Shown: one piece after another, positions 1,861 through 58,370 of the stretch
Position numbering within the stretch: position 1 is the first letter of the stretch
Layout of the letters: each line of letters opens with the position of its first letter
From: Omnitrophica WOR_2 bacterium RIFOXYA2_FULL_38_17
GTDB taxonomy: Bacteria; Omnitrophota; Gorgyraeia; Zapsychrales; Zapsychraceae
Assembly (NCBI GenBank): GCA_001805965.1
Contig: MHHG01000072.1
Coordinates: forward strand, 429-64,428
Direction: 5' to 3'
DNA: 64,000 bases
Translations under genes and position numbers: made by a program
The notes under the pieces: model-generated
The model's database searches: none
Told to the model about the DNA's origin: nothing
The model's input: only the letters and a program-made list of their open reading frames with translations

Positions 1861-2931
1861 AAATGTAGGTTCAAGGGTCTAGCGCAACACTTTGAACTGC
1901 TATAATGGCAGGGAAAGGAGTTGCTAATGGCAAAATATCAAAGACTTAAGTGTTTTGAACGAGAAGAAATATCTCGACAAGTTGCATCAGGAAAGAGCCT
2001 CAGGGAAGTAGCTAAAAATCTCCACAGATCTCCAAGCACCATAACCCGAGAGATAAATAAAAGTGTTGTTGATCGTAAATTTTATCGGGCATTTTTTGCA
2101 CAAGGTCGCAGCAACAAAATTCTTCATCAACGGCATAAGAATCGTAAGCTTGATAACAATCGTGCATTGCGCAAAATTGTACTGTTTTATTTAGCCAAGA
2201 AATGGTCCCCAGAACAGATTGCTAAAAGAATAGTTCTCTTGTATCCTAATGATATGGATATGCGAATTTCACACGAAACAATTTATTCTTATGTGTATAT
2301 ATTGCCGCGCGGGGAATTAAAGCGCGAGTTAGCAGCATGTTTAAGGCGTGGTCATGCTAATCGATATAAGAACAAGAAAGATAGACGAGATAGTGGCGCG
2401 ATACAGAATTATTTGAGTATTGAAGAAAGGCCCAAGGAAGTAGCTGATCGTATAGTTCCAGGACATTGGGAAGGTGATTTGATTATAGGTGGGAGTCATG
2501 CTTCAGCTATTGGGACGCTTGTTGAAAGAACAACCAGAATGACATTTTTAGTTAAGCTGGAGAACAGGTATGCGAGGAATGTCAGAAAAGCTTTTGCTAA
2601 GGAATTTCAATATTTGCCAAAAGGGTTGAGAAAAACATTAACATATGATCAAGGCTCTGAAATGGCAGAACATAAGATTTTCACAAAAGAAACAAATATA
2701 TCTGTTTACTTTGCGCATCCCAGTTCCCCATGGGAACGAGGAACAAATGAGAATACGAATGGCTTATTAAGGCAATATTTTCCTAAAGGAACTGATTTTA
2801 CAAAAATATCAAAAGCTCAGCTTAAAGCAGTGCAAGACGAGCTTAATGACCGTCCTCGTAAGGCATTGGAATGGTATACACCACACGAAAGATTTTCAGA
2901 GTTGTTGCGTTAGAAACTTGAATCTACCTTT
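1861..2931 (+). mobile_element. IS30-family insertion sequence (~1.07 kb) with imperfect terminal inverted repeats
   Basis: Left end AAATGTAGGTTCAAGGGTC (1861-1879) matches the reverse complement of 2913-2931 (AAAGGTAGATTCAAGTTTC) at 15 of 19 positions. These flank a single IS30-type transposase ORF. Confidence 0.55.
1921..2913 (+). CDS. IS30-family DDE transposase
   Basis: N-terminal HTH region, then PGHWEGDLIIGG (IS30 signature G-H-W-E-G-D) and a downstream DDE-type core (TYDQGSEM..., NENTNGLLRQY). 330 aa is the typical IS30 transposase size. Confidence 0.85.
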   Translation: MLMAKYQRLKCFEREEISRQVASGKSLREVAKNLHRSPSTITREINKSVVDRKFYRAFFAQGRSNKILHQRHKNRKLDNNRALRKIVLFYLAKKWSPEQIAKRIVLLYPNDMDMRISHETIYSYVYILPRGELKRELAACLRRGHANRYKNKKDRRDSGAIQNYLSIEERPKEVADRIVPGHWEGDLIIGGSHASAIGTLVERTTRMTFLVKLENRYARNVRKAFAKEFQYLPKGLRKTLTYDQGSEMAEHKIFTKETNISVYFAHPSSPWERGTNENTNGLLRQYFPKGTDFTKISKAQLKAVQDELNDRPRKALEWYTPHERFSELLR

Positions 2932-3081: not shown

Positions 3082-4560
3082 ATGAAGCTTAAAAACAATA
3101 TTATTCCTTTTATTCTATTTCTGGGAAGCTTTTTTCTACGCCTTTCTTTAATAAGCAAAGGCCCCTTTAATGTAGATTGTTTAGACCTTGCCACTCAGGC
3201 AGAAAGGTCTCTCTCTGCTGGACAGCTTCAAAACATGTATGGATCAGGGTATCCAATGGTAGTTATTCTTAGCGCCGGTCTTATCTATATATTCAGAATG
3301 ATCAATATTGTAGATCCTGTCAGTGCTGTCAACATGATGAGTGTTGTAACAACTTCAATCTGTGTTATATTTTTTTATAAAATTGCAGAAAGAATAACAA
3401 GTCAAAAAGCTGCAATATTTAGCACTATTCTTTTTTCATTAAATCCAGCATTTTTAGGAAACTCTGTTTTTGGAATAAGTCATGGCCCAGCATTGCTCTT
3501 TTTATCTGTATCTATATATTTTCTGATACTTTTCAAAGAGGACAATAAGTGTCTAAAATATTTATTTATTTCAGCAATATTTTTCGGATTTACTGGAGCT
3601 GCACGACTTCAAGACATGATATTTCTGATCATACCAATAGCTTCATTGATATTGATCCCACTAAAACCTTGTAATATAAAAAGATTTTTGTTATTTTCTC
3701 TCATTGCTGCTGCTTTTTGCGCCTTGTTTTATCTTCCATATATTATAACTGATGCACGTGAAGATTACTTTAGTCAGCTAAGAAGCTATCGTGCAGATTC
3801 TTTGCCTGTTTATAGCCTAGAATTTATTAGATATACGTTCTTAGAGCTTCATGGTTACCTTTGTGAGTTATTGTTGCCTGTTGGATTGTGCATAAGCATA
3901 TGCGGTCTGTTTATTCTAGGGCGAAAAAAGAATTCCTACTCTATGTTTATATATCTATGGTTCTTTGTTTCTTTCTATATTCTAATCATTTTCTCAACAA
4001 CAAGGCCGAGGTTTCTTTTATTGTCGTTAATGCCTTTAAGTATTGCTGCAGGAGAATGTTTGTCTTATTTATTTAATTTTAATCGGGTATTCAAATTTGT
4101 ATCTATCATCATGCTTTGTCTTCTTTTTCGCATGGGGTTCCTGCCTACATACTATCTTCTTAAATTTCGCCATCGGGTTTCAGTTATCATTGAATATTGT
4201 AAATGGCTTAATAAAAATACTGAAAAGAACTCTCTTATTATTACTTGTGATGATAAACCATTTATACGTTATTATGGTTCTAGGGAAAGCTTAGCTAGGC
4301 CAATGAATACTTTTAGTATTAGTATAGAACAATTAGAAATGTTTAAAAAAGGGCTTGATAAAAAGATTGAAGAAGGTTATCCGGTGTATATCACTGATAT
4401 CGGTCTTTACGCCTATGCGCCAAAAGGAGAATTTACCTCTTTCTTTAGGCATAATTATAGAATTGTTCCTGTGGGAAAAAGTCTTTATGAAGATTGGCAC
4501 CAAGGGGCATCAGAAGATCAACTTTTCTACAATAATCTTTATAAAGTGACAAAGAATTAA
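3082..4560 (+). CDS. polytopic membrane protein, GT-C-fold glycosyltransferase-like (PMT/ArnT/GT39-like), paralog A
   Basis: ~370 aa of multiple predicted TM helices with a short first extracytoplasmic loop (FNVDCLDL), then a ~120-aa soluble C-terminal domain. That topology is typical of lipid-linked-sugar GT-C transferases. 492 aa, same length as the downstream paralog. Confidence 0.45.
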   Translation: MKLKNNIIPFILFLGSFFLRLSLISKGPFNVDCLDLATQAERSLSAGQLQNMYGSGYPMVVILSAGLIYIFRMINIVDPVSAVNMMSVVTTSICVIFFYKIAERITSQKAAIFSTILFSLNPAFLGNSVFGISHGPALLFLSVSIYFLILFKEDNKCLKYLFISAIFFGFTGAARLQDMIFLIIPIASLILIPLKPCNIKRFLLFSLIAAAFCALFYLPYIITDAREDYFSQLRSYRADSLPVYSLEFIRYTFLELHGYLCELLLPVGLCISICGLFILGRKKNSYSMFIYLWFFVSFYILIIFSTTRPRFLLLSLMPLSIAAGECLSYLFNFNRVFKFVSIIMLCLLFRMGFLPTYYLLKFRHRVSVIIEYCKWLNKNTEKNSLIITCDDKPFIRYYGSRESLARPMNTFSISIEQLEMFKKGLDKKIEEGYPVYITDIGLYAYAPKGEFTSFFRHNYRIVPVGKSLYEDWHQGASEDQLFYNNLYKVTKN

Positions 4561-4839: not shown

Positions 4840-6318
4840 ATGAGATACAAGCACATCATTATTCCATGTATTTTATTGTTGGGCAGCTTTATCCTCCGCC
4901 TTTTATTAATTAGCAAAGGGCCGTTTAGTATAGATTGCTTCGATCTTGCTCTTAAAGCTGAAAAAACTTATTCCTCTGGGCAACTTCAATATATGTTTGG
5001 CCCAGGATATCCTTTCGCTATCATTCTCGGGGCGATGTTTATTTGGCTGTTTAATGCATTTAATATTTCGTCTCCTATTTTTGCTGTGAATATGATGAGT
5101 GTTGTTACGGGTTCTTTAGCAGTTTTCTTTTTCTATAGAATTTCTGAAAGTATTACAGATCAGAAATCAGCAATATTTGGCACTGTATTATTTTCATTAA
5201 ACCCAATTGTATTAGGATATTCCGTATATGGGACCAGTAATGCACCAACCTTGCTTTGGTTATGTGTATCGGTTTATTTTTTGATAATTAGCAGGGAGAA
5301 TAAAGATAGTCTGAAAAATTTATTGCTCTCTGCTGTCTTTTTTGGTCTGCTAGGAGGGACACGCCTGCAAGATATGATCTTTCTATCTATACCGATCGCT
5401 TCCTTATTGTTTATTTCTAAAAAAGCATATCGAATACGAAGAATTTTTGTATTTTTTCTCACAGCTGTTTCTGTAAGTATTTTGTTCTATCTTCCATTTG
5501 TTTTGACAGATATGAGGATTGAATATTTAAGCCAGTTAACCAGATTTCGTGCTCTCAACGTACCTACTTATAGCTGGGATTTTACGAAAGAATCCTTCTT
5601 TAAAATTCATATTTACCTTCTTAACGCATTATTGCCAATAGGATTAATAACTAGCTTATATGGACTATTTATTCTGGTGCGCAACAAGAACCCATTCACT
5701 CTGTTTTTGTTACTATGGTTCTTTATTCCTTTCGAAATTACAATAAGGTTTGCTACGACTTATTCGAGATATTTATTAATACCAATTGTGCCTTTAAGTA
5801 TTGCGGCAGGGGCATGTTTGTCTTATTTGTTTAGCAAGGGCCGCATATTTAAAATGGCTTCTATTCTGATCCTTTGCCGTATTTTTTATTTTAGTTTTCT
5901 GCCCATGTATAAGCTCTTGGATTTTCGTCACCATCGTTCAGTTATTATTGAATATTGTAAATGGATCAATGGTATTACTGAGAAAAATGCTTTTATGATT
6001 AGCTGTGATGATAGAAGCTTTATTAATCATTACGGGGATAGGGAAATTATCTCTAGGCCAATGGATAGTTTTCATATCAGCAGGGAACAATTAGAAGAGT
6101 TTAAAACAAGGTTGGATGAAAAATTAGAAGAGGGTTATCCTGTTTATATAACTGCTATCGGGCTTTATGATTATTCACCGAATGGAGAATTTACTTCTTT
6201 CATGGAGCTTCACTATAGGATCAAATATGCGGGAAAAGGTCTTTATGAGGATTGGCACAGTGGAGCAGAAGACAGGAGAATTTTTTATAATTCTCTTTAT
6301 AAAGTGACAAAGAAATAA
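4840..6318 (+). CDS. polytopic membrane protein, GT-C-fold glycosyltransferase-like, paralog B (tandem duplicate of 3082..4560)
   Basis: Collinear with paralog A over the full 492 aa (MRYKHIIIPCILLLGSFILRLLLISKGPFSIDCFDLA... vs MKLKNNIIPFILFLGSFFLRLSLISKGPFNVDCLDLA...; C-termini ...YNSLYKVTKK vs ...YNNLYKVTKN). About 40 bp of upstream leader (TTGAAANNTTTTATTANNTATGA) is also duplicated. Confidence 0.45.
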   Translation: MRYKHIIIPCILLLGSFILRLLLISKGPFSIDCFDLALKAEKTYSSGQLQYMFGPGYPFAIILGAMFIWLFNAFNISSPIFAVNMMSVVTGSLAVFFFYRISESITDQKSAIFGTVLFSLNPIVLGYSVYGTSNAPTLLWLCVSVYFLIISRENKDSLKNLLLSAVFFGLLGGTRLQDMIFLSIPIASLLFISKKAYRIRRIFVFFLTAVSVSILFYLPFVLTDMRIEYLSQLTRFRALNVPTYSWDFTKESFFKIHIYLLNALLPIGLITSLYGLFILVRNKNPFTLFLLLWFFIPFEITIRFATTYSRYLLIPIVPLSIAAGACLSYLFSKGRIFKMASILILCRIFYFSFLPMYKLLDFRHHRSVIIEYCKWINGITEKNAFMISCDDRSFINHYGDREIISRPMDSFHISREQLEEFKTRLDEKLEEGYPVYITAIGLYDYSPNGEFTSFMELHYRIKYAGKGLYEDWHSGAEDRRIFYNSLYKVTKK

Positions 6319-6477: not shown

Positions 6478-9400
6478 ATGTTATTTAGGTACTATTTAAC
6501 TAAAAATAAGACCTTTTCTGGCTATGTAAATAAGTCCATCTGTTTGCTCGTATCTTTTATCTTTTTTACTGCAACTGTCTGTCCCGCGCAGGTGTTTGCT
6601 CAAGCTGTCTTAACGTTGCCGGCTCCCGGAACCATGGTTCCAACCTCTCCGGTTCATAACCCCGCAATGATCCTTGGGATGACCATTAATATGGATAATC
6701 CGTTTCAATTTGATTTTCTTGTGGATTCGGGAGATGAGAATCTTGAGGATGATGCCTTTCGAAAAGAAACAGGGAAGCTTATCAAATACTTTTTAACGGC
6801 ATTGACCGTGCCCGAAGAGGAAATGTGGGTTAATTTATCGCCTTATGAGAAGGACCGCATTATTGCAGATGGCCTTGGGGGAACCGAAATGGGTCGGGAT
6901 ATGCTCGCTCAGGACTATCTTTTAAAGCAGCTCTCTGCTTCATTGATGTACCCTGAAAATGATCTTGGCGCTGAATTCTGGGAAGACGTTTATGAGAAGA
7001 TGGGTGATGAATATGGGACAAAGGATATTCCCGTTGATACGTTCAATAAGATCTGGATCGTTCCAGAAAGGGCTGAGGTTTATGTCAACGGCGAGAGTGT
7101 TTATATTGTCGACAGCCATCTTAAGGTCATGCTTGATGAGGATTATCTTGCCTTAGAAGCTAATAAGAACACTATTGGGCATGGGCTTGGAGATATTAAG
7201 GAGGAAGACCTAAAGCAGCATTCAAAAGTATCGACCGATGCCATCCGCAAGATATTGATCCCGGCAATTGAAAAAGAGGTCAACGAAGGGCAAACATTTG
7301 CATCGTTGCGGCAAATATATAATTCACTGATTCTCGCGGCATGGTTCAAACAGAACCTCAAGAGCAGTATTTTAGGGCAGATCTATGTTGACCGCAGCAA
7401 ACTAAACGGCGTTGATATCGATGACAAAGATGCCAAGATAAGGATATACGAGCAATATTTGAGAGCTTTTAAAAAAGGCGTTTTTGACCTTGTCAAGGAT
7501 GAGTATGATTCGAGCACTCAGACGGTTATTTCCAGGAAGTATTTTTCCGGAGGGGAAAATTTTGCAAATATTGCGCAGGTTGTCCAGAATACAGGTTCTG
7601 ATAGTTCTATGTTGTCCTTCATGCGCAAGATCGTTGGCAGAACGATCAGGTCCGTAACAACTATAGTCAAAAGAGCCAGTCCCAAAAGATTGCCTGATGG
7701 GGAAGAACAAGAGAGCGAAGAACTTCTGGGACAATTGAATGAAATATTACAGAAAGCAGTTAAGGATAGGGCTGATCCTGGTGACTTTGAAAAAAAGCAG
7801 GAGGATCTCCAGGAGTATCAGCCGCCTCAGGCGCCGGAAGTTTCTTTTGAAGAGATCCCTTTACCGGAGGGTATACATACTTTTGACCTCATCACGTTCT
7901 TGCAGGCACAGAAACGTCTGAAGAGTTTATCTGCTGAGGATCTGGGTGCCCTTATGGTCTCTATGGGGATTCTTGATGAGGGCCAAACCTTGACGCGCGA
8001 TGACATAGACCAGCAATACGATATTATTTATAAGCATTTAGCTAAAGAAGGATACTCTGAAGAACTAGTCAGTCTGATCAAAGGTGAGGATGACCCGGAT
8101 GTTGCCTTGGATAGAACTGTCTCGTATCAAAGCGGAAGTTCGAAAATGCAGTCGATCATTGAAGCGGTCGCAAACAGCGTTGACGCCCTGGGAGGTTCCA
8201 TCGGCCAATTCGGAATGGGTGTCAAACAGATTTTAGCATGGCTGGAAGATGGGGAGCGTTTGGAGGTCGTATCTAAAAAGATAGATGATGTTCCCTATCG
8301 TTTGATCATAAGCAAGCAGGCGGGGAAGTTTAACATTGCAATAGATGCTATAAGCAGCGATGATTTTACCAGGGCGCTTGGAGGGGTTAAGTCTGAGAAA
8401 GGCACAGTCATCAATGTCGTCAAGAAAAGGGATGTTCCCACAGAAGGCGACGGAATTACATTGGAGCGTCTTGAGAAAATGGTACATAAGAGGTTTGCCT
8501 TTGTGAAATGGCTGAACCTTTGGACTCGAGGGGGTAATGCCGCTCTTAAGTTCGTAAACGGATGGGAGAGAAGAAGGGTCTTAGCTGGTTTGCAGAATTT
8601 GACGCATGAAAATATTGAGGAATCCGGAGCAGGCCGCGGTGAGAAAATGATCATTGTTTCGCTTGAGTCCCGTGCATTGAGGATCATGGATACAGGGGTG
8701 GGTATGGATTTTCAGGTTTTATCACGCATGTTCCTTCCGGTAGACGGTGGTGACAAAGAGAATAAGTCGCTGGATTCAGAAGAAGATATCAACGCGGAAA
8801 TCGAAAGAACAAGCATGGTCCATGATTGGCAAGGCCCGGTGACATCTGTTGTTTTTGCCAGAAATGGCGAGATGGTCATGGAAGTCCCTCTAAGTGAAGA
8901 GATCAGCGGTTCTATTCTAAAGGGTCAGTTGATGGTTGATCTTGGTAGATTGATACGTGTTTCTCCATCCCGTGACAAGATAGTCCTTCAGCGGAATCAG
9001 GATGAGGAGCCGTTAAAAAGAGGTTTTGTACATCTTGCGCAAGAGGTTATTCAAGGTAATATCTCTGATCAGGAGAAGATCCAGATCATCAACACGCTGA
9101 TAGGTGGTTTGGAAGGGATCGCTCCGGGAAATAAATCAGTTTCCGACATAATTGACGGGGTTAAGATCGCGCTGAAGAAAGAGACGAAGGCTTTTGTTAC
9201 TAAACTCAAGAGTAAAGGCATAATTCTTTTGCCGCTTCGCGGAGGCTATGATAATTTTCGTATTCCTGAAGGTAGAACGGTTGCTTTCCTTAATGAGAAC
9301 CTTTTCGATTGGAGAGGATCTGAATTGAAACAGCTCAAAGAGAATATGGGGGCTAAGGTTCTGCCCCTGGTCCTTGAGGGGAAAGACCCGGATACGGGGA

Positions 9401-12400
9401 TAGTGATACGTAATATTATTCTTGCTGCACCATATAAACAAAGCATTTGGAGTGGGTATCAAGGGAGAGATCTTCAGGAATTTGTTAAGATCGTTTCTCA
9501 GCAGGAATTGCCGGTCATAAAAGGTGACGGCTATGTTGTAGTTCCATCGCAGGTCAGCGAGATGATCGCCACGCTCTCGCAAGATAGCGATAGGATGATA
9601 GAGATCCTGGAGTTATTGAAAATTTTAACTGAAGAGGATACGGCCAACAGTTATGAATTTGAGATCAAGAAAACGGAAGCCTTTGCCGCCTTTGGAGCTG
9701 ATGCCGCTTCTGAAGGTACAGAAGGTCGCCAAACAAAATGGGGGAAAGAAATAGAATTCTTGACTTGGTTTAAAGAGGATGAGCCGACAGCTGAAATTAT
9801 ATCGACGCCATTCGGCCCTCAAAAGACCGAAAAAACGGTTACAGACACTATGCGTGCTTTCAGAGCGGAAAAAGTTGATTTTGATCGAATTTTTCGCGGG
9901 CAAGATATCTTTGCATCAAAACAGGATTTTGTGACAATGAAGAGCGCAAAAGTGGAGTTTTCTCAAGTCTCCCAAGTTGTTTTTACGAATATTTTTGTGA
10001 GGGATCAAGAAAAGCCCAGGATCGGTGAATATTTGGATTCATTGGGTAAAAGTGTAAGGAACCAGGAAGGGGCAAAATTTAGTTTATCAAATAAAGGCAC
10101 TGAAGATAAGGCAATGCTTAGCTTATCAAGCAAGATCGCTATTGAAGCATTAAGGAAATATCCTTTAGCAGAAATTGAAGGTATCAGCGAGTTTATGTTC
10201 GGTAATGATAAATATGTTGTCCGAAAGTATGACAGCGTGAATGGACCCCTACATATTTTGATAGAAAAGGACGGGAAGGATATTAAAAAATTCTGGGCGC
10301 TGGCTTTGCCTTTGGATGTTGAATCATGTCTGATAGATAAAGGAAGAGTGATCTTCAAGGAATCCGAAGGAAACAGGGAGGTCTATGTGGATCTTTTTGA
10401 TCCGGAAGGGGGCTTCCTGGTGAGCTTGAATGTTGAACCAGAAAAGAAGAAAGAGTGGTTAGTGAAACTGGAAAGCAGCTATGCTCAATTGCTCGAGCTT
10501 GTTCCTGATGATGTCATCGAAGGAAATCATTCAGAGTTCAAAGATATTTTCACACGTCTCAATGCGCTCATAAAAGAAAGGGCTGTTTATATTATAGAGG
10601 GTGGTGTAACGCCAGGCCAACAGGTCGCTGCCATTGATGCACTGGTTGATGAGGTGTCCAATGATCTTATTCGGATCGGCGCTACTGTAAAGGAAATGTG
10701 GGAAAATTTCGGGGATGAGAATATATTGCCCCTAAAAGCTCATGAGAGGGGAAGTTTCTTCACGCAGTTCATCAAGGTTCTTGTGCAGGCCGCGACGCTG
10801 GGCCAGTTGGGAGAAAAAGAGGATCTTGAGCAGATGGTTCGGATTATGGGACACGGATTTGTAGTTAAAAGCTCCGCTGATATTGAATCCGCTAAGGCTA
10901 TCGACAGGTTGGTTCAGGCGCTCAGGAAAAAGAATATGAAGGACTTCCCGGAATTATCTAAGATCGTGACGACGCTTCAGCTGACCTTGCGTAAAAGGGA
11001 TGCCGGGGCTGCGGGCCATTTGATAGATAAGATCAATATGATCCTCAATAGTGAGGAGTCGGGAAAATATCTGGAATTGATCTATAAAGAGTTTCAGAGT
11101 GCGGAGTGGATTAAAATAAATAGTGAGATAAGCGCGGGAAAATTTCAGGATCTTGATCGACTGGGGCGGTTGCTGATATTTCTGTCAAGCCGTTCGGACC
11201 TTGTTGCGGAAGATATGAGAAGTGAAGAAGATGATATGAATTGGGCAGTTGTTCCCGAACCTATGGGATTGGAGCAGCTTGATGTGTGGAGCTCATCGAA
11301 AAGCGGAGTCAGGACGGTCGATGAAGTTGTCCAAAAGCAGTCACAGATAAGGGCTTTGGACAATGAGGCTGTTGAGCGAGTTCGCCAGAATATACGATCG
11401 AAGGTCGAAGGATTAAGAGAGTCCGGTGGATATGCGGCTGAATTGATGCAGAATTTTCTGGATGCGATGGTACTGCTGAGGCAGGGCAAGACCGAACAAA
11501 AAGGAAAGCTCCAGGTAAAGTTCTATTATGATAAGGAAAGAGATGAATTTGTTGAAGAGATCAATGACAATGGTCCGGGAGCGCCTGTTGGAAAAGAGCT
11601 GGCGCTTCTTATCAGGAAATCGAACAAGTATGAATTGAACAAGGATCAGCAGGGCCTTGAAGGTCAGTTGGCGGGATTCTTTGGAACGGGTAAATTTACC
11701 ATGTATGCCGGCGCTGATAAAGTTGAGATAATTTCCCGGGGTGAAGAGAATGTCTATGTGTTCGTTCTTAAGGTTGACCGCAAGAACGGAAAGGTCTTTT
11801 TGGAAAAAGTAGGCCAGCGCCAGAGGCGTGAAGGGGAAGAAACAGGCGTGATGATCCGGAGGATCAAGGAAGCTGTATCTATTATTCCATCACTTGAGCA
11901 GATGTTTGCCGAATCTGCCTGGAAAATAAATGCGGGGTTTGCGGTAACGGATAAGGACAGCCTTGATATGGAGATCAATCATGCGATCCATCCGGTTGAA
12001 GTGGCAGGGCGCAAGGCGCTTTATCAGGGAGCATTTTATGCGCCCAATTTATCGACATCCGAAGAACATGGTGAGGAGCGTATAGATCATGGCATATTCA
12101 GGATATGGGAGCATAATGATCCCGAAGTTCCTTCACAGATTGTTGATAAGAAAGGCCTGCGCGTTGAGGATATCGCCCTTAAAGAAAAATTCCTCGAACT
12201 GGTCCCGCAGAGAATGCGTGATATGTTGGATAAAATGCATATAGTTATACAGATACCTCTAGCTCTTTATGAAAGCCGCAATGGATTTGCCCAGGAGGAT
12301 GAATATCTGCCCTTTATTCAAAGGCAGGTCGCTGTTGGGGTGTACCGGGCGCTGGTTAGCAAGTTTCTCTCGGATGAAAGCTTTACTATGGACAGGATCA

Positions 12401-13482
12401 TATCGAGCGATTTTGAAACGGGAATGACATACAATATGGCTTTTAACAGGCAGGCAAATGATCTTTATGTCGGAGAACGTCATTTATTTGATATTGTTAA
12501 AGACCTTAATTCTGAGCTGTCTGATCCAAGGCTGGGGGCAGTTACTAACGGGGAATTGGATGTTCTTAAAGGATGGTTTGATGGGGAGGGAACTGATCTC
12601 GAGAAGGGTTCAATAAAACAATTTTTATCTTTATTGGAGGTTGATTATCTGAATATGGAAAGCATTACTGAACGGGCGAGTATTGTAATGCGGAGAATTA
12701 AGGCGCTCAAGGATGTCGCGCCGCAATTAGCGGAGAATCTCGCTGGCAATACGGGGCGTTCCGTTGAAGATGCGGATAAGCTTAAGGACCGCTATTCTAA
12801 CGAGAGAAAAGCTCAGGCAGCTAGAAGTAAGGTGATTTCTGAAAACTCTCCTTCCTATTGGAGGGAGGCCCCGGTGACTGAAGAAGAAAGAGACCTCTTG
12901 AGGATCGGTGAGGAATTTTCAGCGATATTCGGGATCGAACAGGTTTGGTTAGCCAAAAGCGATGCGCCTTTCAGCGGTTTGTTCTTCGGGAGCGGAATGA
13001 TGCTGAATAAAAGCATTGCGGGGAAAATAGCATCTGAAGGTGGATTTTCTGAAAAGGTCGAAGTGATAGCGCATGAATTAGGGCATTTATTGCAGGCTGC
13101 AAAGCGTTCTGCCGGCAGGGTCGAAATGGTTGCTACCGAACAGCATGGTTTTAATGATTGGACCCATGATGATGAGTTCTCCGAAATGATGAAATGGGTC
13201 TCGTTCTTTATTCTATCAAAACAGTCTCCCGCAGCTAATCAAGCTGATCGGGGTAATACAGATACTACTGTAGAACAAGTAGAATCAGCCCCTGGTGGTA
13301 TCGATTTTAATACGCAGATGTTGAACCTTGAAAATACCGGTAAGCAGTTTCAGTACGATGTTCCGCAATTGTCACCTGAGCAAATGGAATATCTCTCTAT
13401 TGATGGATTGGTCCCGGTTATCATAAATATTTCTCCGGTTACAAACTTGCCGCTGCTTTTGGGATATAATATTGAGGAATAA
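6478..13482 (+). CDS. giant secreted multidomain protein (2334 aa): signal peptide, conserved N-module, two HSP90/sacsin-like GHKL segments, HExxH zincin motif, conserved C-module
   Basis: Single uninterrupted ORF. N-terminal hydrophobic segment ...LLVSFIFFTATVCPAQVFAQA is signal-peptide-like. At ~11440-11830, ELMQNFLDA (N box), EINDNGPGA (G1 box DxGxG), GFFGTGKFTMY (G2 box) and KVEIISRGEENVYVF sit in canonical HSP90/GHKL order and spacing. Degenerate copy at ~8150-8350 (IIEAVANSVDA..IGQFGMGVKQ). HELGH at 13072-13086. N- and C-terminal modules are shared with the 911-aa ORF at 46492..49227. Confidence 0.85.
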   Translation: MLFRYYLTKNKTFSGYVNKSICLLVSFIFFTATVCPAQVFAQAVLTLPAPGTMVPTSPVHNPAMILGMTINMDNPFQFDFLVDSGDENLEDDAFRKETGKLIKYFLTALTVPEEEMWVNLSPYEKDRIIADGLGGTEMGRDMLAQDYLLKQLSASLMYPENDLGAEFWEDVYEKMGDEYGTKDIPVDTFNKIWIVPERAEVYVNGESVYIVDSHLKVMLDEDYLALEANKNTIGHGLGDIKEEDLKQHSKVSTDAIRKILIPAIEKEVNEGQTFASLRQIYNSLILAAWFKQNLKSSILGQIYVDRSKLNGVDIDDKDAKIRIYEQYLRAFKKGVFDLVKDEYDSSTQTVISRKYFSGGENFANIAQVVQNTGSDSSMLSFMRKIVGRTIRSVTTIVKRASPKRLPDGEEQESEELLGQLNEILQKAVKDRADPGDFEKKQEDLQEYQPPQAPEVSFEEIPLPEGIHTFDLITFLQAQKRLKSLSAEDLGALMVSMGILDEGQTLTRDDIDQQYDIIYKHLAKEGYSEELVSLIKGEDDPDVALDRTVSYQSGSSKMQSIIEAVANSVDALGGSIGQFGMGVKQILAWLEDGERLEVVSKKIDDVPYRLIISKQAGKFNIAIDAISSDDFTRALGGVKSEKGTVINVVKKRDVPTEGDGITLERLEKMVHKRFAFVKWLNLWTRGGNAALKFVNGWERRRVLAGLQNLTHENIEESGAGRGEKMIIVSLESRALRIMDTGVGMDFQVLSRMFLPVDGGDKENKSLDSEEDINAEIERTSMVHDWQGPVTSVVFARNGEMVMEVPLSEEISGSILKGQLMVDLGRLIRVSPSRDKIVLQRNQDEEPLKRGFVHLAQEVIQGNISDQEKIQIINTLIGGLEGIAPGNKSVSDIIDGVKIALKKETKAFVTKLKSKGIILLPLRGGYDNFRIPEGRTVAFLNENLFDWRGSELKQLKENMGAKVLPLVLEGKDPDTGIVIRNIILAAPYKQSIWSGYQGRDLQEFVKIVSQQELPVIKGDGYVVVPSQVSEMIATLSQDSDRMIEILELLKILTEEDTANSYEFEIKKTEAFAAFGADAASEGTEGRQTKWGKEIEFLTWFKEDEPTAEIISTPFGPQKTEKTVTDTMRAFRAEKVDFDRIFRGQDIFASKQDFVTMKSAKVEFSQVSQVVFTNIFVRDQEKPRIGEYLDSLGKSVRNQEGAKFSLSNKGTEDKAMLSLSSKIAIEALRKYPLAEIEGISEFMFGNDKYVVRKYDSVNGPLHILIEKDGKDIKKFWALALPLDVESCLIDKGRVIFKESEGNREVYVDLFDPEGGFLVSLNVEPEKKKEWLVKLESSYAQLLELVPDDVIEGNHSEFKDIFTRLNALIKERAVYIIEGGVTPGQQVAAIDALVDEVSNDLIRIGATVKEMWENFGDENILPLKAHERGSFFTQFIKVLVQAATLGQLGEKEDLEQMVRIMGHGFVVKSSADIESAKAIDRLVQALRKKNMKDFPELSKIVTTLQLTLRKRDAGAAGHLIDKINMILNSEESGKYLELIYKEFQSAEWIKINSEISAGKFQDLDRLGRLLIFLSSRSDLVAEDMRSEEDDMNWAVVPEPMGLEQLDVWSSSKSGVRTVDEVVQKQSQIRALDNEAVERVRQNIRSKVEGLRESGGYAAELMQNFLDAMVLLRQGKTEQKGKLQVKFYYDKERDEFVEEINDNGPGAPVGKELALLIRKSNKYELNKDQQGLEGQLAGFFGTGKFTMYAGADKVEIISRGEENVYVFVLKVDRKNGKVFLEKVGQRQRREGEETGVMIRRIKEAVSIIPSLEQMFAESAWKINAGFAVTDKDSLDMEINHAIHPVEVAGRKALYQGAFYAPNLSTSEEHGEERIDHGIFRIWEHNDPEVPSQIVDKKGLRVEDIALKEKFLELVPQRMRDMLDKMHIVIQIPLALYESRNGFAQEDEYLPFIQRQVAVGVYRALVSKFLSDESFTMDRIISSDFETGMTYNMAFNRQANDLYVGERHLFDIVKDLNSELSDPRLGAVTNGELDVLKGWFDGEGTDLEKGSIKQFLSLLEVDYLNMESITERASIVMRRIKALKDVAPQLAENLAGNTGRSVEDADKLKDRYSNERKAQAARSKVISENSPSYWREAPVTEEERDLLRIGEEFSAIFGIEQVWLAKSDAPFSGLFFGSGMMLNKSIAGKIASEGGFSEKVEVIAHELGHLLQAAKRSAGRVEMVATEQHGFNDWTHDDEFSEMMKWVSFFILSKQSPAANQADRGNTDTTVEQVESAPGGIDFNTQMLNLENTGKQFQYDVPQLSPEQMEYLSIDGLVPVIINISPVTNLPLLLGYNIEE

Positions 13483-46491: not shown

Positions 46492-49227
46492 ATGTTTAGC
46501 AAAGCTATAAAAAAAGTTATAGTATCGTTAATGGTTTTTGCATTTTTAGGGGCGCAAGTTTTTCCACTTTGTCCCGTAGATGCTAATGCCCAGAGTGCGC
46601 TTGTTTTGCCTTCAGCCGGAGCTATGATCCAAACAAGCCCTCCATTCAGTCCCGCAGTGATCCAAGGCATTACTTTATATCCAGAAAATCCTCTAAAGTT
46701 TGATTTTATAATTGATAAAGGTGATACCTATTTTGAATCAGAAGAATTTCAGGATGAAGCTAATAGGCTTATCAATTATTTTATGGCGTCACTGACTGTT
46801 CCTGAAGATGAGATGTGGGTCAATCTTTCACCATATGAGAAAGATAGGATTATTGCCGATGGTTTAATTCAAACGGAGCTAGGACGTGATATGCTTGCGC
46901 AGGATTATTTATTGAAACAGATAACAGCTTCTTTTATGCATCCTGATGGAAGTGTCGGGGCTGAATTCTGGAAGAAAATATATGAAAAGGCACAAGCCCT
47001 TTATGGGACGACAGAAATGCCTGTTAATACCTTTAATAAAGTTTGGATCGTTCCTGAAGAGGCGGTTGTTTATGTGCATGGAACAAGCGCTTTTGTTGTT
47101 GAGAGCCACCTGAAAGTCATGTTAGAAGGTGATTATATGGCTCTTGACAATAATTCGTTCAATAAAAAAATAGGAACGGACCAAATAGAAAAGAGAGATG
47201 TCGAAAAGATCAGTGATGTTTCATCTGCTATTGTCCGGGATGTAATCCTTCCAGAGCTTGAAAAAGAAGTCAATGAAGGAGAGAACTTTGCTACTCTTCG
47301 CCAGATGTTCAATTCGATGATACTTGCAACATGGTATAAGCAGAATCTGAAAAATAGCTTGTTTGGAGAAGCATATATTAACAGGAATAAAGTTTCTGGA
47401 ATTGACCTTGCAGAGCGGGGCGTTAAGGAAAAGATATATGACCAGTATGTAGAAGCTTTTAAAAAGGGAGTTTATGATTTCGTAAGGGAAGAATATGATG
47501 ATGCTACTCAAGAGATAATTCCTAGAAAGTATTTTTCAGGTGGGATTGTCGGACAGAAATCTGTAAAAGATACTTCTATGTTGGGAGACAATGACAAAAT
47601 AGGATCATTGTTGGATGGTGAAAATAAAGAGAAAGTTACAGTTGAGATAAAAGTTGGCGATAGAGATGTAAGTGATGCTACGAGAGCCTCTGATGCAGTT
47701 GTTTCAGACAATAGAGAGGAGTATCCACTTAGAGTTGAGGGGGATACCGGAGATTATACTTATTCTTTATCATTTGTTAATCCTAAAAGAAGAAGACCGA
47801 CAATGGTTCCAAATGCGATAGAGGTAAACAGAAAGCTTACCAGAAAAGAATTGGATGAATATAATGAACTTTCTTCCGAAGAAAAAGCAAAAAGAAGAGT
47901 TGATAGCGGCATAGAGAAGGTTGATATTGATTTGAGAAGAATCATTCATGAGAAATTTGAGGGATTTTTAACCAGGACTGATTATGTTCAGAATGTTCTT
48001 GGAGATATTGACTCTGACGTATATTTTCAAGATATAAAACATATAGACATAGAGTTTATTAGATTATCAGAGAGAGTAGTTTTCAATGTAAAAATATACA
48101 CTAAAGATGGAGGATCTGAGCCTAGTGAGGAGTTTATAGCTAAGGTAGTAAGGAAAAGAAATCAGCTTGAAGCGGGCGAGAACGAATTTGAATTTGAGCA
48201 GATTGCAGATCAGCAGGTGGAAGCTTTTGAAAAACTTAAAAGTAGAGGAGTAAGATTTGTCCCAAGGTATGCAAAAACTGTTGATGGTGTTTATTATGAG
48301 GAGGTTATTAGGGGAAAATCAATTTTGCAATATGCTGCAAGTGAAGGGTTGACAACTGAAGAGATTGAAGAGATTGCATATACGTGGCTGACTATTTGGA
48401 GGCATGTTAAGGATTCTTCGGATCCTACTTCGTCTGATCCCAAAATGCTTGACCTGAATCCTGGCAATATCATGATAAGGGAAGGGGAAGACCTTCTTGA
48501 CAGTCATGTTGTTATTGATATATTTAGCACCTCAAAGGGTAGTTATAATCCCAAGAGCCTGGTTAGAGATTTGTTGAGGTTTTATGTCTACGGCGGTAAT
48601 CCTGCAGTGACAGTCAAATCAAAAAAGTCAAATGATATTGAGCCTGTACTCGAGGGTATTTATAGAGGGCTTGATTATGACAGGGCGCAAACGATAAAGT
48701 TCCTTACGAGCATAACTCATTCGCCTGTTGTGCCTTTTAGGCAGTGGAGCGGGAAGGGGCAGGACCCAAGGATCAGTGATCTTGAGTTTTATGCAGTGAT
48801 TGAACAGTTTTTAAAAAGGGAATTTGGTTATCAAGAAACTACAACTGCTCTTGAAAGATATAACAATATAGAAAATTTTAAAGGGAATCAAAGAAAGGAG
48901 CGCGCTATTGCAAATATGAGAGCAAGAGCAGAGAATGCGACAGGGGAAAATTCAAGAAATTCATCAGATAGTATTGCGGCTCGCGGAACAGAATCTCCTA
49001 CAGCAAACCCTGGTGGTATCGACCTTGATGCTGATAATATGAACTTAAAAGTTGAAGGGAATATGTTCAATTTTCAATTGCCTGATGATTTTGAGGGCAT
49101 TGATATTAATGCAGAAGGATTTTTGCCTGTCATAATAAATATCTCACCAATTATCGATATGCCGCTTCTTCTTGGAGTTGCAGAAGATGAGGAATACCAG
49201 CCGCAGTTAAGTTATTCATTAAATTGA
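46492..49227 (+). CDS. secreted modular protein (911 aa): conserved N-module, atypical protein-kinase-like core, conserved C-module; paralog of 6478..13482
   Basis: Signal peptide ...FLGAQVFPLCPVDANA. Residues ~40-390 are ~65% identical to the giant protein N-module (e.g. MWVNLSPYEKDRIIADGL, GRDMLAQDYLLKQ, KVWIVPEEA, HLKVMLEGDY, LEKEVNEGENFATLRQ). Core has IAKVVRK (beta3 Lys-like), LDLNPGNIMI (catalytic-loop-like HxDLxPxN) and VIDIFS (DFG-like). C-terminus PGGIDLD...LPVIINISPIIDMPLLLG is shared with the giant protein. Confidence 0.8.
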   Translation: MFSKAIKKVIVSLMVFAFLGAQVFPLCPVDANAQSALVLPSAGAMIQTSPPFSPAVIQGITLYPENPLKFDFIIDKGDTYFESEEFQDEANRLINYFMASLTVPEDEMWVNLSPYEKDRIIADGLIQTELGRDMLAQDYLLKQITASFMHPDGSVGAEFWKKIYEKAQALYGTTEMPVNTFNKVWIVPEEAVVYVHGTSAFVVESHLKVMLEGDYMALDNNSFNKKIGTDQIEKRDVEKISDVSSAIVRDVILPELEKEVNEGENFATLRQMFNSMILATWYKQNLKNSLFGEAYINRNKVSGIDLAERGVKEKIYDQYVEAFKKGVYDFVREEYDDATQEIIPRKYFSGGIVGQKSVKDTSMLGDNDKIGSLLDGENKEKVTVEIKVGDRDVSDATRASDAVVSDNREEYPLRVEGDTGDYTYSLSFVNPKRRRPTMVPNAIEVNRKLTRKELDEYNELSSEEKAKRRVDSGIEKVDIDLRRIIHEKFEGFLTRTDYVQNVLGDIDSDVYFQDIKHIDIEFIRLSERVVFNVKIYTKDGGSEPSEEFIAKVVRKRNQLEAGENEFEFEQIADQQVEAFEKLKSRGVRFVPRYAKTVDGVYYEEVIRGKSILQYAASEGLTTEEIEEIAYTWLTIWRHVKDSSDPTSSDPKMLDLNPGNIMIREGEDLLDSHVVIDIFSTSKGSYNPKSLVRDLLRFYVYGGNPAVTVKSKKSNDIEPVLEGIYRGLDYDRAQTIKFLTSITHSPVVPFRQWSGKGQDPRISDLEFYAVIEQFLKREFGYQETTTALERYNNIENFKGNQRKERAIANMRARAENATGENSRNSSDSIAARGTESPTANPGGIDLDADNMNLKVEGNMFNFQLPDDFEGIDINAEGFLPVIINISPIIDMPLLLGVAEDEEYQPQLSYSLN

Positions 49228-49360: not shown

Positions 49361-50257
49361 ATGAAAAGGTTTATTTGCTTACTGATAATTATGTTATGTT
49401 TTATATCGGTTGCTTTTGCATCAATTGTTGTTCTTGAAACCGGGCAGACAATCGATGGAGAGATAACAGAAAGAAATGATGATCATATAAAAATAAATTA
49501 TGAGGGGATTGAGGTAACTTTTTATTTAGATGAAATAAGCACTATTGATAATGTTGCTGTTGAAGTGCCAGAGGCTGAAGATTATAGTGAAACAGATTCT
49601 CAAGCATATGCCGAGATTGAGCCTGAGCAAGAAGATTATTCAGCGTTTGTTGATGCGCCTGTGCAGGATAATCTGGTTGAACAGGTTGAACAGGTTGATT
49701 CAGGATCATATTTTTCAGGTGAAAAAAGCGGCCAGGTCTCACAGGCTTTAAGTAGCAGTTCCAGAGCCTCAACGGATAATGTTTTTGGTGCTCAACAAGG
49801 TTTTGGGGCACAGAAAACTATGTCTTTAAGTGAGAAGTTGGCTCAAAGAGGTATGGGGCAAGGTGAAATTCCAAGGGCAGCTTTGGGTGCCGTGTTGGCA
49901 CCTTTCATGATTGTAATGATGTTTTTATTGCTTATACTTGCAGCTAACTGGAGAATATATTCAAAGGCTGGTTATCCAGGATGGGCCTCTATTGTGCCAA
50001 TTTATAATATTTACATATTGGTGAAAATAGCCGGAAAGCCGGTCTGGTGGATGCTTTTGATGTTTATCCCGATCGTTTCGATCGTTATTTTTATTGTAAT
50101 CAATATCGGTATTGCGCAGAATTTTGGTAAAGGGATTGGATACGGATTAGGATTAACGTTTTTGCCTTTGATCTTTGTTCCTTTGCTAGGCTTTGGCAAT
50201 GCGCAATATATATCTAATCAGAAGGTTGGCAATCCTCTGGCTGACATTGCTGTCTAA
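49361..50257 (+). CDS. hypothetical membrane protein: signal/anchor, acidic linker, C-terminal 3-4 TM bundle
   Basis: RBS GGGAGG. N-terminal hydrophobic MKRFICLLIIMLCFISVAFA. Asp/Glu/Gln-rich middle. C-terminal helices (WASIVPIYNIYILVKIAG, WWMLLMFIPIVSIVIFIVINIGIA, GLGLTFLPLIFVPLLGFG). Confidence 0.45.
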   Translation: MKRFICLLIIMLCFISVAFASIVVLETGQTIDGEITERNDDHIKINYEGIEVTFYLDEISTIDNVAVEVPEAEDYSETDSQAYAEIEPEQEDYSAFVDAPVQDNLVEQVEQVDSGSYFSGEKSGQVSQALSSSSRASTDNVFGAQQGFGAQKTMSLSEKLAQRGMGQGEIPRAALGAVLAPFMIVMMFLLLILAANWRIYSKAGYPGWASIVPIYNIYILVKIAGKPVWWMLLMFIPIVSIVIFIVINIGIAQNFGKGIGYGLGLTFLPLIFVPLLGFGNAQYISNQKVGNPLADIAV

Positions 50258-50305
50258 GTTGTTACAGTTCCGGGAAGGTTATGTCTGAAAATACAAAGAG
50301 AGGAA

Positions 50306-56669: not shown

Positions 56670-58370
56670 ATGCTAGAAAATGTAAAAAAAATAGTAGGAG
56701 AAAGATTGATCAAGTCAGGTATTGTTGATCAAGATCAATACCTCTTAGCGCTGGAGAGACAAAAGGACACGGGTGTTTGCTTAAAACAGATTTTGGTCGA
56801 CCTTGGATATATTTCAGAAGCCGAGCTTGCGGATTATAAGTGGGCATCCTTCAATATTCCTTTTATGGAAGATGTCCTAGATAAAGTAGTAGACCCTCAA
56901 ATCATTCAGATGATACCCGAAGCCATTTGTAGAAATAATAATGTTATGCCCTTATTTAAGGTAATGGATGTACTTATAATCGCTATGCTAAATCCTTTAG
57001 ATAAGAGCTTAATTGATGATCTTAAAATGGTAACAGGATGCCAAATTGACGGTGTTCTGGTAAAAAAAGAAGAGCTTGTTAAGTCTATAGATATGTTTTA
57101 TGGAAAAGCTGACGGGTCAAGTAAGATAGTTAAAAGAATGGTTGATGATGAGGAAGAATTATTTTTGATAAATGAGAACAAAGAGACCGAATCTTCTTTG
57201 AAGACAACAACTACTCTTGATGCCCCGGTCATTAGAATTGTTAATGCAATTATAAGCCAGGCGATCAAAAAAGGCGCAAGCGAAATTCATTTTGACCCTG
57301 ATGAAGATATCTTGAGGGTAAAATATCGTATTGATGGCGTATTAAGAGATGCAATGATCACTACTAGGAGCCTGCAGCCTTCAATAATATCAAGGATTAA
57401 AATTATGGCTTCATTTGATATTTCAGTCAAAAGAACGCCACAGGAAGGCAAGTTCAAAGTTAATTCATATAATAAAGATTTTGATGTGCGTGTTCTCACT
57501 GTTCCTGCGATCTATGGGGAGAAGATTGTTATGAGATTGTTAGATCAGATAAGCATAAAACTTGGATTAAAGGATTTAGGTTTTACTAAGGAATGTTATG
57601 AAAAATTTACTGAATTGATAAAGAGCCCGTATGGGATCATTTTTGTAACTGGCCCCACAGGCAGTGGAAAGACAACGACACTTTATCTTGCATTGCAGGA
57701 GATTCATTCTTATAAGCGCAATATCATCACAATTGAAGACCCTATTGAATGTGTTCTTGACGGAATAGACCAGATAGAGGTAAACGCGAAGGCAGGAGAG
57801 ACCTTTGCCGAGAATCTAACTTCTGTTTTGGAGCAGGAGCCTGATGTGATTATGGTTGGAGAGATAAGCGACCTTGAGACGGCTGACATTGCCGTGAGGG
57901 CAGCATTAACAAATCATTTAGTGTTCAGCACTCTTTCTTCAAGAGATACTCCCGGTGCGATAGCTCGTATGATTGATATTGGCATACAGCCTTATTTAGT
58001 TACTTCCTCAATTATTTGCATTCTTACCCAGAGATTGGTTAGGGTTATTTGTCTTGATTGCAGGGAGAAGTATATTATGTCAGAAAGCGAGTTTAAGGAA
58101 TCTGGATTAGTGGGCCAGAAAGGAGAATATACTTTCTTCAAAGGTGCTGGCTGCAGTCAATGTTCAGGCTCGGGGTATCGTGGTAAGACAGGGATCTTTG
58201 AGCTTATGATCATTGATAAGGAATTAAGGGGTTTGATACAGTCTGGAAAATCAGCTGAGATGATTATGTATGCCGCTCGCAGAGCAGGCATGAAAACATT
58301 ATGGGAGGATGGCATAGAGAAAGTTAAAAAGGGTATAACAACCTTTGAAGAACTTAAAAGAACAATTTAG
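56670..58370 (+). CDS. type II secretion / type IV pilus assembly ATPase (GspE/PilB family)
   Basis: N-terminal GspE_N-type domain. Walker A GPTGSGKTTT, Asp box, Walker B VIMVGEISD. Tetracysteine Zn motif CLDC...CSQCSGSG. Confidence 0.85.
   Translation: MLENVKKIVGERLIKSGIVDQDQYLLALERQKDTGVCLKQILVDLGYISEAELADYKWASFNIPFMEDVLDKVVDPQIIQMIPEAICRNNNVMPLFKVMDVLIIAMLNPLDKSLIDDLKMVTGCQIDGVLVKKEELVKSIDMFYGKADGSSKIVKRMVDDEEELFLINENKETESSLKTTTTLDAPVIRIVNAIISQAIKKGASEIHFDPDEDILRVKYRIDGVLRDAMITTRSLQPSIISRIKIMASFDISVKRTPQEGKFKVNSYNKDFDVRVLTVPAIYGEKIVMRLLDQISIKLGLKDLGFTKECYEKFTELIKSPYGIIFVTGPTGSGKTTTLYLALQEIHSYKRNIITIEDPIECVLDGIDQIEVNAKAGETFAENLTSVLEQEPDVIMVGEISDLETADIAVRAALTNHLVFSTLSSRDTPGAIARMIDIGIQPYLVTSSIICILTQRLVRVICLDCREKYIMSESEFKESGLVGQKGEYTFFKGAGCSQCSGSGYRGKTGIFELMIIDKELRGLIQSGKSAEMIMYAARRAGMKTLWEDGIEKVKKGITTFEELKRTI

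Follow-up and report, generated by a model that had tools for sequence, protein, structure and literature searches.

The stretch of DNA analysed here (the window) comprises 64,000 nucleotides of Omnitrophica WOR_2 bacterium RIFOXYA2_FULL_38_17, positions 429 to 64,428 of contig MHHG01000072.1. At 6478..13482 on the + strand it carries a single open reading frame (ORF) with an ATG start, which encodes a giant protein of 2334 aa plus stop. An identical protein (P0001) is called on a Joint Genome Institute (JGI) metagenome contig, where its neighbours match those in the window. A first-pass annotation, made from the letters alone, had described this ORF and a series of motifs in it; each motif lies where it had been placed, with residues conserved in 15 homologues.

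The giant protein is an arrangement of modules, all encoded on the + strand. A Sec-type signal peptide (aa 1-41, 6478..6600), predicted from hydropathy and family statistics, precedes the N-module (aa 42-361, 6601..7560; LTLPAPGTMV ... WVNLSP ... YFSGG), the common N-terminal carrier domain of an Omnitrophota family. An acidic, Gln-rich linker, recognised by its composition and conserved in close orthologues only (aa 362-520, 7561..8037), leads to cargo module A (aa 521-1061, 8038..9660), inside which lies a probable circularly permuted HSP90-type ATPase domain. The linker between modules A and B (aa 1062-1644, 9661..11409) has no recognisable domain in Pfam/NCBIfam-type scans; it can be aligned in the close relatives P0002-P0005, and its length differs across family members. 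Next comes the ATPase part of cargo module B (aa 1645-1965, 11410..12372), an HSP90-type Bergerat domain followed by a middle/transducer-like domain. A helical connector (aa 1966-2150, 12373..12927), defined by the secondary structure of an AlphaFold2 (AF2) model with a predicted local distance difference test score (pLDDT) mostly of 85-95, joins it to a small HExxH zincin domain (aa 2151-2250, 12928..13227). The chain ends with the C-module (aa 2270-2334, 13285..13479; PGGIDFN ... GLVPVIINISPVTNLPLLLG, then a short acidic tail), a C-terminal element common to the same family.

The N-terminus of the giant protein reads MLFRYYLTKNKTFSGYVNKS, a putative n-region with a net charge of +4. It is followed by ICLLVSFIFFTATVCPA, the sole segment of the protein with a Kyte-Doolittle hydropathy above 1.7. 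This hydrophobic stretch (aa 21-39, with the h-region at aa 21-37; hydropathy 2.05-2.67) runs into a candidate c-region, PAQVFA|QA (QVFA|QAVLTLPAPG). The features expected of a Sec/signal peptidase I (SPase I) signal peptide, namely a positive n-region, an h-region of 10-20 aa and a small-x-small site, can all be read from the sequence. They also recur among 118 family members: the n-region is positive in 110 (median +3), the best 12-mer hydropathy has a median of 2.52, and an xAQ site (110) or a small-x-small site (106) stands at most 16 residues before a conserved LNLPxPG motif. A helix-breaking Pro together with the small-x-small|Q site is kept in 106-110 of them, and the 40 residues past the LNLPxPG motif have a median net charge of -2. 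Altogether, these features match what a cleaved Sec signal with N-in/C-out topology would show, apparently maintained by selection family-wide. The giant protein would accordingly be exported and cleaved at A41|Q42. The secretion signal proposed in the first-pass annotation is thereby upheld at the level of Sec-type features, conserved in 110 of the 118 proteins.

A search with the full-length protein scored 8000 candidates, and 2242 clusters reached E<=1e-3. The architecture was mapped by BLAST of 120 homologues. The N-module (aa ~20-360) is common to these relatives at 44-61% identity around unrelated middles (50-61% for over 100 of the proteins listed), and the C-module (aa ~2273-2329) is common to most of the listed relatives at 31-56% identity. 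The cargo itself is held in common by P0002-P0015 only; the remaining relatives in the map match just the N- and C-modules. In 41 members, the N-module has 56 invariant columns, including those in WVNLSP.E, T..G.D.L.QDY.LKQ, TF.K.W..P, E.N.G..F..LRQ and Y..GG. The C-module follows the consensus GGIDLNP..L.L...G...I.GF.PVIINI.P..N.P.LLG. No Pfam or NCBIfam entry matches the N-module, and no relative was found in the PDB by sequence or by fold, the fold having been tested on the model of a paralogue described below. Judged by these sequences, the giant protein belongs to an unnamed family whose members begin with a signal peptide and N-module and end with a C-module (GGIDxNP ... PVIINIxP..N.P.LLG), so that a constant bracket frames a variable cargo.

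Bracket-family proteins measure 0.9-4.5 thousand residues (kaa) each. Relatives named by source are all Candidatus Omnitrophica/Omnitrophota, with the exception of an unclassified hydrothermal-vent metagenome record (P0100). When one genome per species was scanned, 79 loci came up. Bins titled 'Peribacteria' and 'archaeon' account for two of them, and the remaining 77 sit in metagenome-assembled genomes (MAGs) whose titles give Omnitrophota/Omnitrophica, 'uncultured Planctomycetales' or simply 'bacterium'. A single MAG can contain several loci: ND2_Bin_17 has at least six, REEB252 four. The cargo domains, taken from a precomputed Pfam table, cover sugar and central metabolism (PGK, PGI, PGM, enolase, transketolase, NDK, UDPGP, isocitrate lyase/PEP mutase, starch synthase). 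They further include radical SAM with B12-binding, response regulator, GGDEF, HATPase_c, DnaJ, MutS_V and TetR_N domains, as well as M48 with UbiB kinase, RNA polymerase alpha C-terminal domain (CTD), methyltransferases, NUDIX and others. Since the family carries all kinds of cytoplasmic-type enzymes, the paradox of ATP and cofactors outside the cell is a property of the whole family and not of the giant protein alone.

The window holds a second bracket-family member, a protein of 911 aa encoded at 46492..49227 (+), whose N-module is 52% identical by tblastn (E 6e-134) and whose C-module matches with E 1e-11. This paralogue was modelled, on an alignment of 41 full-length members, in place of the giant protein because the latter is too long. 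In the model, the N-module is a mixed helical and beta-hairpin domain with a pLDDT of about 80-96; the first hairpin of the C-module (GGIDL...) reaches ~90 and the PVIINI...LLG tail ~55, and the cargo is poorly modelled. Foldseek found nothing significant for this model in the PDB. Eight of the nine best-ranked matches are components of ClyA-family alpha-pore-forming toxins (MakA/B/E, VCA0883, NheA), with SmhB at rank 49, but none is significant (E 0.07-1, probability <0.1, template-modelling (TM) score <0.15), and a ClyA-type pore-forming role for the N-module is not relied on here. The cargo of the paralogue (~450 aa) matches nothing in Pfam or the PDB; its LDLNPGNIMI motif looks kinase-like by eye, an assignment for which neither library gives support. 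The genes flanking the paralogue (44141-46291 + and 49361-51754 +) include an ORF of 716 aa that matches nothing in Pfam, a DUF5684 protein and an outer-membrane efflux protein of the TolC type.

It is conceivable that these proteins never leave the cell that makes them. Their N-termini would then anchor in the inner membrane or go unused for export, the ATPases would work in the producer's cytoplasm, and the N- and C-modules would form a membrane-proximal scaffold. Such a tether on the cytoplasmic face, the main rival to export, would dissolve the ATP and cofactor paradox family-wide and agrees with a stand-alone form of the cargo that is cytoplasmic by sequence (see below). Nielsen and Lui place the enzyme content of giants that have only transmembrane helices on the cytoplasmic face (10.64898/2026.06.07.730766), and West-Roberts et al. 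call topology predictions for such proteins unreliable (10.1101/2023.11.21.568195). The N-termini themselves speak otherwise: a positive n-region followed by a net-negative stretch predicts N-in, C-out, and the conserved Pro with its small-x-small|Q site is typical of cleaved signal peptides, not of anchors. We therefore regard the tether as distinctly unlikely, with a slim chance of being right.

Module B was examined in an alignment (A1) that sets aa 1620-2270 of the giant protein against the corresponding parts of 14 homologues (28-76% identity). Its N box ELMQNFLDA (aa 1655-1663, nt 11440-11466), G1 box EINDNGPGA (aa 1694-1702, nt 11557-11583) and G2 box GFFGTGKFTMY (aa 1733-1743, nt 11674-11706) succeed each other in HSP90 order and spacing. 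The G2 box is followed by a strand of the DKVEIISR type (KVEIISRGEENVYVFVLK, aa 1748-1765). In the N box, conservation of E1655, N1659 and D1662 reaches 90% or more across the 15 aligned sequences, and D1697, G1699 and G1701 of G1 and G1733, G1736 and G1738 of G2 are invariant. In the second domain, the IQIPL..L...R..F loop (IQIPLALYESRNGF, nt 12247-12288) contains R1934, invariant or at least 90% conserved; we take its PL..L...R pattern to recall the HSP90 catalytic loop PLN(I/L)SRE.

Sequence searches point towards the HSP90 family, at a distance. Pfam gave nothing significant with the whole giant protein or with five pieces of it, and NCBIfam gave a single weak HSP90-family match (NF010683, aa 1652-1788, E 2e-4, 20.1 bits against a cut-off of 455). 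With phmmer, aa 1602-2271 retrieves only HSP90-family N-domains from all PDB sequences (best E 0.006), and the significant PDB matches of the A1 profile are likewise HSP90 N-domains only (best E 1.3e-4). Pfam HATPase_c_3 (PF13589) matches five of the 15 aligned sequences, with a best E of 9.3e-7, and not the giant protein itself at E<=10; the precomputed table assigns it to P0007, P0011 and P0012.

The fold comparison of module B ranks TRAP1 first (score 15.2, 318 residues aligned), then GRP94 (15.0), Topo II, ParE and topo VI-B (about 14), SMCHD1 (13.9), MORC2/3 (13.0-13.7), MutL (13.1) and Sacsin SR1 (11.3), with histidine kinases at about 6-7. The alignments span 260-318 residues; therefore a second domain is present besides the Bergerat domain, and it matches an HSP90 middle or GHL transducer domain. 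With its N, G1 and G2 boxes and its alpha/beta sandwich fold, module B is a member of the GHKL (Bergerat-fold) ATPase superfamily, and of no named family within it. The GHKL segment that the first-pass annotation had placed at ~11440-11830 is thus confirmed by structure and sequence search as an HSP90-type fold. As the N-box Glu and Asn, the G1 and G2 glycines and R1934 are all conserved, the ATPase is probably active, and module B may be expected to hydrolyse ATP. The catalytic residues are also intact in homologues that have no signal peptide, which argues that ATP chemistry has been retained and that the protein should act where ATP is present.

A true HSP90/HtpG chaperone or a bacterial orthologue of sacsin could be suspected, for the best sequence and fold matches of module B are N and N+M domains of the HSP90 family (HtpG, TRAP1, GRP94), with which it has in common the Bergerat fold and the invariant Arg. 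Identity is only ~14%, the curated HSP90 equivalog model fails by far, no Pfam HSP90 or HATPase model matches the giant protein, and only the N+M-like parts align, no C-terminal HSP90 dimerisation domain being recognised by sequence. The architecture departs as well: module B is embedded in a 2334-aa protein with an export signal, a probably permuted second copy before it and a zincin after it. Sacsin (SACS), which the first-pass annotation had invoked, is likewise very large and repeats its HSP90-like ATPase module. That affinity does not hold: the giant protein has two modules instead of three, the first one probably permuted, and none of the UBL, XPCB, DnaJ or HEPN domains; it is bacterial and has a signal peptide and a zincin, and evidence of common descent does not extend beyond the GHKL superfamily. 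As a claim of membership this explanation is refuted, and we leave it next to no chance. Among other GHL ATPases (MORC2/3, SMCHD1, MutL, GyrB/ParE, topo VI-B), a likeness lies in the five homologues that match HATPase_c_3, a model of the MORC/sacsin type, whereas no DNA-binding, CW, S5-coiled-coil or Toprim parts are detected and the sequence profiles hit HSP90 only.

Module A is more divergent. In a search of 1.84 billion representative proteins, aa 441-1061 find 92 relatives at E<=1e-3, and most of the strong matches sit in proteins of 2000-7700 aa. Their common core reads ...EAVSNSLDALG..IGQFGxGVKQ..WLE..G.DR.dV.T... and, about 150 residues on, ...I.I.DNG.GM....RMFVP..G.K. The G1 box DNGxGM (MDTGVGMD in the giant protein, nt 8686-8709) is invariant in this core, and a G2-like IGQFGxG lies upstream of it, within the lid/G2-like element EAVANSVDALGGSIGQFGMGVKQ (nt 8161-8229). 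Pfam HATPase_c recognises the DNGxGM region in four of eight distant members, weakly (24-28.6 bits against a cut-off of 26.4). In its native order, the module A profile (A4) matches the G1 region of HtpG in the PDB (E 2.6e-4) and TRAP1 with E 0.11, the latter in two separate, individually insignificant stretches whose order is reversed relative to TRAP1.

We then re-permuted the alignment in silico, placing aa 665-763 before aa 555-664 in 18 sequences (A5), and repeated the PDB search. The TRAP1 match, at 14.3 bits (E 0.11) before, now scored 23.5 bits (E 3e-4) and merged into a single stretch that runs from G1 through the lid helix and G2 into the following strand. PDB matches at E<=1 increased from 12 to 118, of which the best 60 are all of the HSP90 family. 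An invariant Asn, N694 ('VNG'), stands 44 residues ahead of the G1 Asp, which is the spacing of the N-box Asn in HSP90. Residues ~549-765 are thus probably a circularly permuted HSP90-type domain, with lid/G2 ahead of N-box/G1; the evidence from these profiles is good but not conclusive. We know of no described permuted GHKL domain, and this one, if confirmed, would represent an uncommon variation on the Bergerat fold. When the profiles of modules A and B are compared, only the G2 strand matches, with a probability of 11.8%, so the two are not recent duplicates. The iteration of HSP90-like modules proposed in the first-pass annotation stands in so far as there are probably two; that annotation had located one, and the other, at aa ~549-765, is the divergent and seemingly permuted domain described here.

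The zincin motif HELGH (aa 2199-2203, nt 13072-13086) lies 132 aa from the C-terminus. H2199, E2200 and H2203 are invariant in the 15-sequence alignment and are found on a helix of the AF2 model (573-591 of the modelled segment). A candidate third metal ligand is offered by THD (aa 2229-2231), whose H2230 and D2231 are conserved in most sequences but not in all; between the motif helix and the next helix, pLDDT drops below 50. Neither SprT-like PF10263 nor WLM PF08325 matches the giant protein, and one of the 15 homologues hits SprT-like (E 0.014). The zincin motif noted in the first-pass annotation is real in so far as its HExxH is invariant and borne on a helix. Compared with Wss1/WLM, SprT/Spartan and the projannalysin-type minigluzincins, the candidate H2230 comes 25 residues past the motif (H2203), unlike the short HExxHx(5-ish)H spacing; DNA-binding and SUMO- or ubiquitin-binding parts are missing, and the Pfam matches are weak and in single homologues. 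Residues 2151-2250 resemble a small Wss1/SprT-like HExxH zincin that falls short of the SprT and WLM family models, and this domain may be proteolytic.

The periplasm contains no ATP. With a Sec signal at one end and a zincin near the other, the protein might be exported and yet be ATP-independent, its HSP90-like modules serving as binding or scaffold domains, or hydrolysing extracellular ATP, and its zincin being an ordinary secreted protease. This explanation is very improbable: the catalytic and nucleotide-binding residues of module B stay invariant over 28-76% identity, also in proteins without a signal peptide, and the kinases, radical-SAM enzymes and other cargo of the sister proteins are left unexplained.

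Most module-A proteins of at least 1600 aa also carry module B, 1100-2000 residues downstream, with or without an N-module. The two modules and the zincin form a cassette of about 1700-1900 aa, in which two HSP90-type ATPase modules are followed by a Wss1/SprT-like zinc protease. Nine proteins of about 1650-2400 aa (P0169, P0174, P0176, P0179, P0183, P0184, P0185, P0188 and P0193) consist of little more than the cassette; their N-termini are hydrophilic, with no signal peptide or transmembrane segment. Three of them (P0185, P0174 and P0184, 1673-2417 aa; loci L080, L085 and L086) are encoded among housekeeping genes of small genomes, with no conserved neighbour at these loci. One of these genomes, the source of the single named stand-alone protein, is labelled Candidatus Dojkabacteria. 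This family is rare: a word-index search gave 11 clusters. The existence of the cassette without a signal peptide indicates that the cargo is a pre-existing, apparently cytoplasmic protein with two ATPases and a zincin. Both the bracket family and this signal-less cassette in other bacteria had escaped the first-pass annotation. P0121, at first sight a stand-alone module B, is set aside: its gene starts 94 nt from a contig end and is probably truncated. A word-index search with aa 1323-2271 returned P0121 only and missed the identical P0001, so negatives from that search are unreliable.

Directly upstream of the giant gene lie two tandem paralogues of a 492-aa PMT_2 / TMEM260-like glycosyltransferase (3082..4560 and 4840..6318, both +), and ~3.5 kb upstream an IS30-type transposase (HTH_38 plus rve, 1921..2913, +); on the 3' side are a 169-aa ORF and a DUF2157 membrane protein. 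A comparison of neighbours at 81 loci shows that these flanking genes do not recur beside other family members. A PMT_2 gene also precedes a 71%-identical orthologue (L083) and is absent upstream of a more distant one (L084), so the adjacency looks like local synteny, not a functional link; glycosylation of the exported protein is a mere possibility. The giant gene has a G+C content of 41-45%, and the 4 kb to either side of it have 32-35%. We do not take this excess as evidence of transfer, because other well-conserved genes of the window (20-27 kb, 52-56 kb) are also richer in G+C, at ~41%. The remainder of the window is ordinary chromosome, with carbamoyl-phosphate synthase, histidine kinases, glycerol kinase, a TolC-like protein and the T2SSE ATPase of a type II secretion system/type IV pilus (T2SS/T4P; 56670..58370).

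We favour the reading that the giant protein is a Sec-exported carrier-cargo protein of an Omnitrophota bacterium, and hold it with confidence poised midway between belief and doubt. The signal peptide would pass the chain through SecYEG. What all members share is the N- and C-modules, which would therefore serve whatever every member needs after Sec, and may act as a common handle for surface or coat retention, for secretion across the outer membrane or for hand-over to an attached host or prey cell. The cargo would use ATP to work as a clamp or chaperone, taking hold of a macromolecular substrate and offering it to the zincin next to it. The ORF, the motifs with their conservation, the fold of module B, the family architecture and its taxonomic restriction are shown by the data; export and cleavage, the handle role, ATP hydrolysis, proteolysis, the substrate and the site of action are inferred.

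Several observations weigh against the carrier-cargo reading. Export is argued from sequence features, and the handle role of the N-module from position and conservation, for a domain with no recognisable relative. Sec export of a 2300-aa chain with ATP-dependent domains leaves the ATP source unexplained, and enzymes that use Fe-S, S-adenosylmethionine (SAM), NAD or CoA are framed by the same bracket across the family. No conserved neighbouring gene at the 81 loci points to a partner machine. Within the protein, the permutation of module A depends on a 9-bit gain in a profile search, and docking of the C-module onto the N-module would follow from pLDDT values.

A specific sub-case of the carrier-cargo reading, favoured by the first-pass annotation, makes the stronger claim that the protein is an effector directed at a host or prey. 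After Sec export, the bracket would pass it on to a route that depends on cell contact, for example a T2SS/Tad-type machine or a bridge between cells, and the ATPase-protease would act in the ATP-containing cytoplasm of the attached archaeon or bacterium. Nearly all cargo of the family is of cofactor-dependent cytoplasmic types, sensible only where ATP, NAD and SAM exist, and the catalytic motifs of module B are intact. Omnitrophota are ultra-small and host-dependent or predatory (PMC10066038). They are also described as episymbiotic, their larger giants mix export signals with cytoplasmic-type enzymes, and the genes often lie near T2SS/Tad genes (bioRxiv 10.1101/2023.11.21.568195; 10.64898/2026.06.07.730766; PMC12419801). 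RNA of the predator is described in dead prey cells (PMC13153191). The window itself includes the T2SSE gene.

The family also recalls polymorphic toxins and effectors by its constant delivery part, variable payload, many paralogues per genome and restriction to one lineage with an antagonistic or symbiotic lifestyle. Its payload is central, not C-terminal, and consists mostly of metabolic and signalling enzymes in place of nucleases, deaminases or pore formers; much of it is housekeeping metabolism (PGK, enolase, PGI), odd for toxins. Pfam and NCBIfam detect no PAAR, Rhs, LXG, two-partner secretion (TPS) or type IX secretion system (T9SS) CTD domain in the giant protein. No PADLOC model matches it, the 911-aa paralogue or the stand-alone cassette proteins, and no toxin-type match was obtained. 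Neither a translocation domain nor a conserved neighbour was recognised, and the lone fold hint, to ClyA-type pore formers, is not significant. A host-directed role is plausible from the literature and fits the metabolic cargo poorly as a toxin model; we rate the effector explanation as rather unlikely, with a real minority chance.

A broader extension of the carrier-cargo reading is that signal peptide, N-module and C-module make up a phylum-specific trafficking or display system that moves hundreds of cofactor-dependent enzymes out of the cytoplasm. The enzymes would be bound for an attached cell, host or prey, or for an extracytoplasmic coat or compartment supplied with energy. The machine of two ATPases and a zincin would be one such cargo, with module A a circularly permuted HSP90-type domain, and the N-module would be a new fold acting as sorting or assembly handle. 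We offer this tentatively and think it unlikely to hold in full.

The closest company of the giant protein is found in its own phylum. The Omnitrophota giants ('Archaeovorins' and others of 10 kaa or more) likewise combine a signal peptide or transmembrane helix with cytoplasmic-type enzyme domains (HATPase_c, PGM, starch synthase, radical SAM), and their localisation puzzle is discussed in 10.1101/2023.11.21.568195 and 10.64898/2026.06.07.730766. The protein described here is unlike them in size (2.3 kaa versus 10-147 kaa), in having one hydrophobic segment instead of many transmembrane helices, and in lacking SecA_DEAD, C39 and dockerin domains. It accordingly falls outside the Archaeovorin/dockerin-type definition of West-Roberts et al. 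(>30,000 aa, many transmembrane helices, SecA_DEAD with C39 or dockerin/TSP3 repeats). The conserved N- and C-modules define the present family, and term searches and selected sections of those papers showed no mention of such a bracket. More widely, neither the N/C bracket, nor the cassette of two GHKL modules and a zincin, nor the apparent permutation of module A is on record in the selected literature sections and term searches or in the Pfam, NCBIfam, PADLOC and PDB libraries.

Large exported multi-enzyme proteins of Omnitrophota are already known, and these three points appear new against the sources searched. They add two uncurated building blocks, the N-module and the rare double-GHKL plus zincin cassette, the latter also present in Candidate Phyla Radiation (CPR) bacteria. 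It is a standing puzzle how domains that depend on ATP, SAM or NAD could function beyond the cytoplasm. The family of the giant protein is a compact and very common form of this open puzzle, with such domains placed behind export signals. Its constant N/C bracket lends itself to searching, modelling, tagging and tracking in the existing Ca. Velamenicoccus archaeovorus enrichment, which makes the question of localisation testable.

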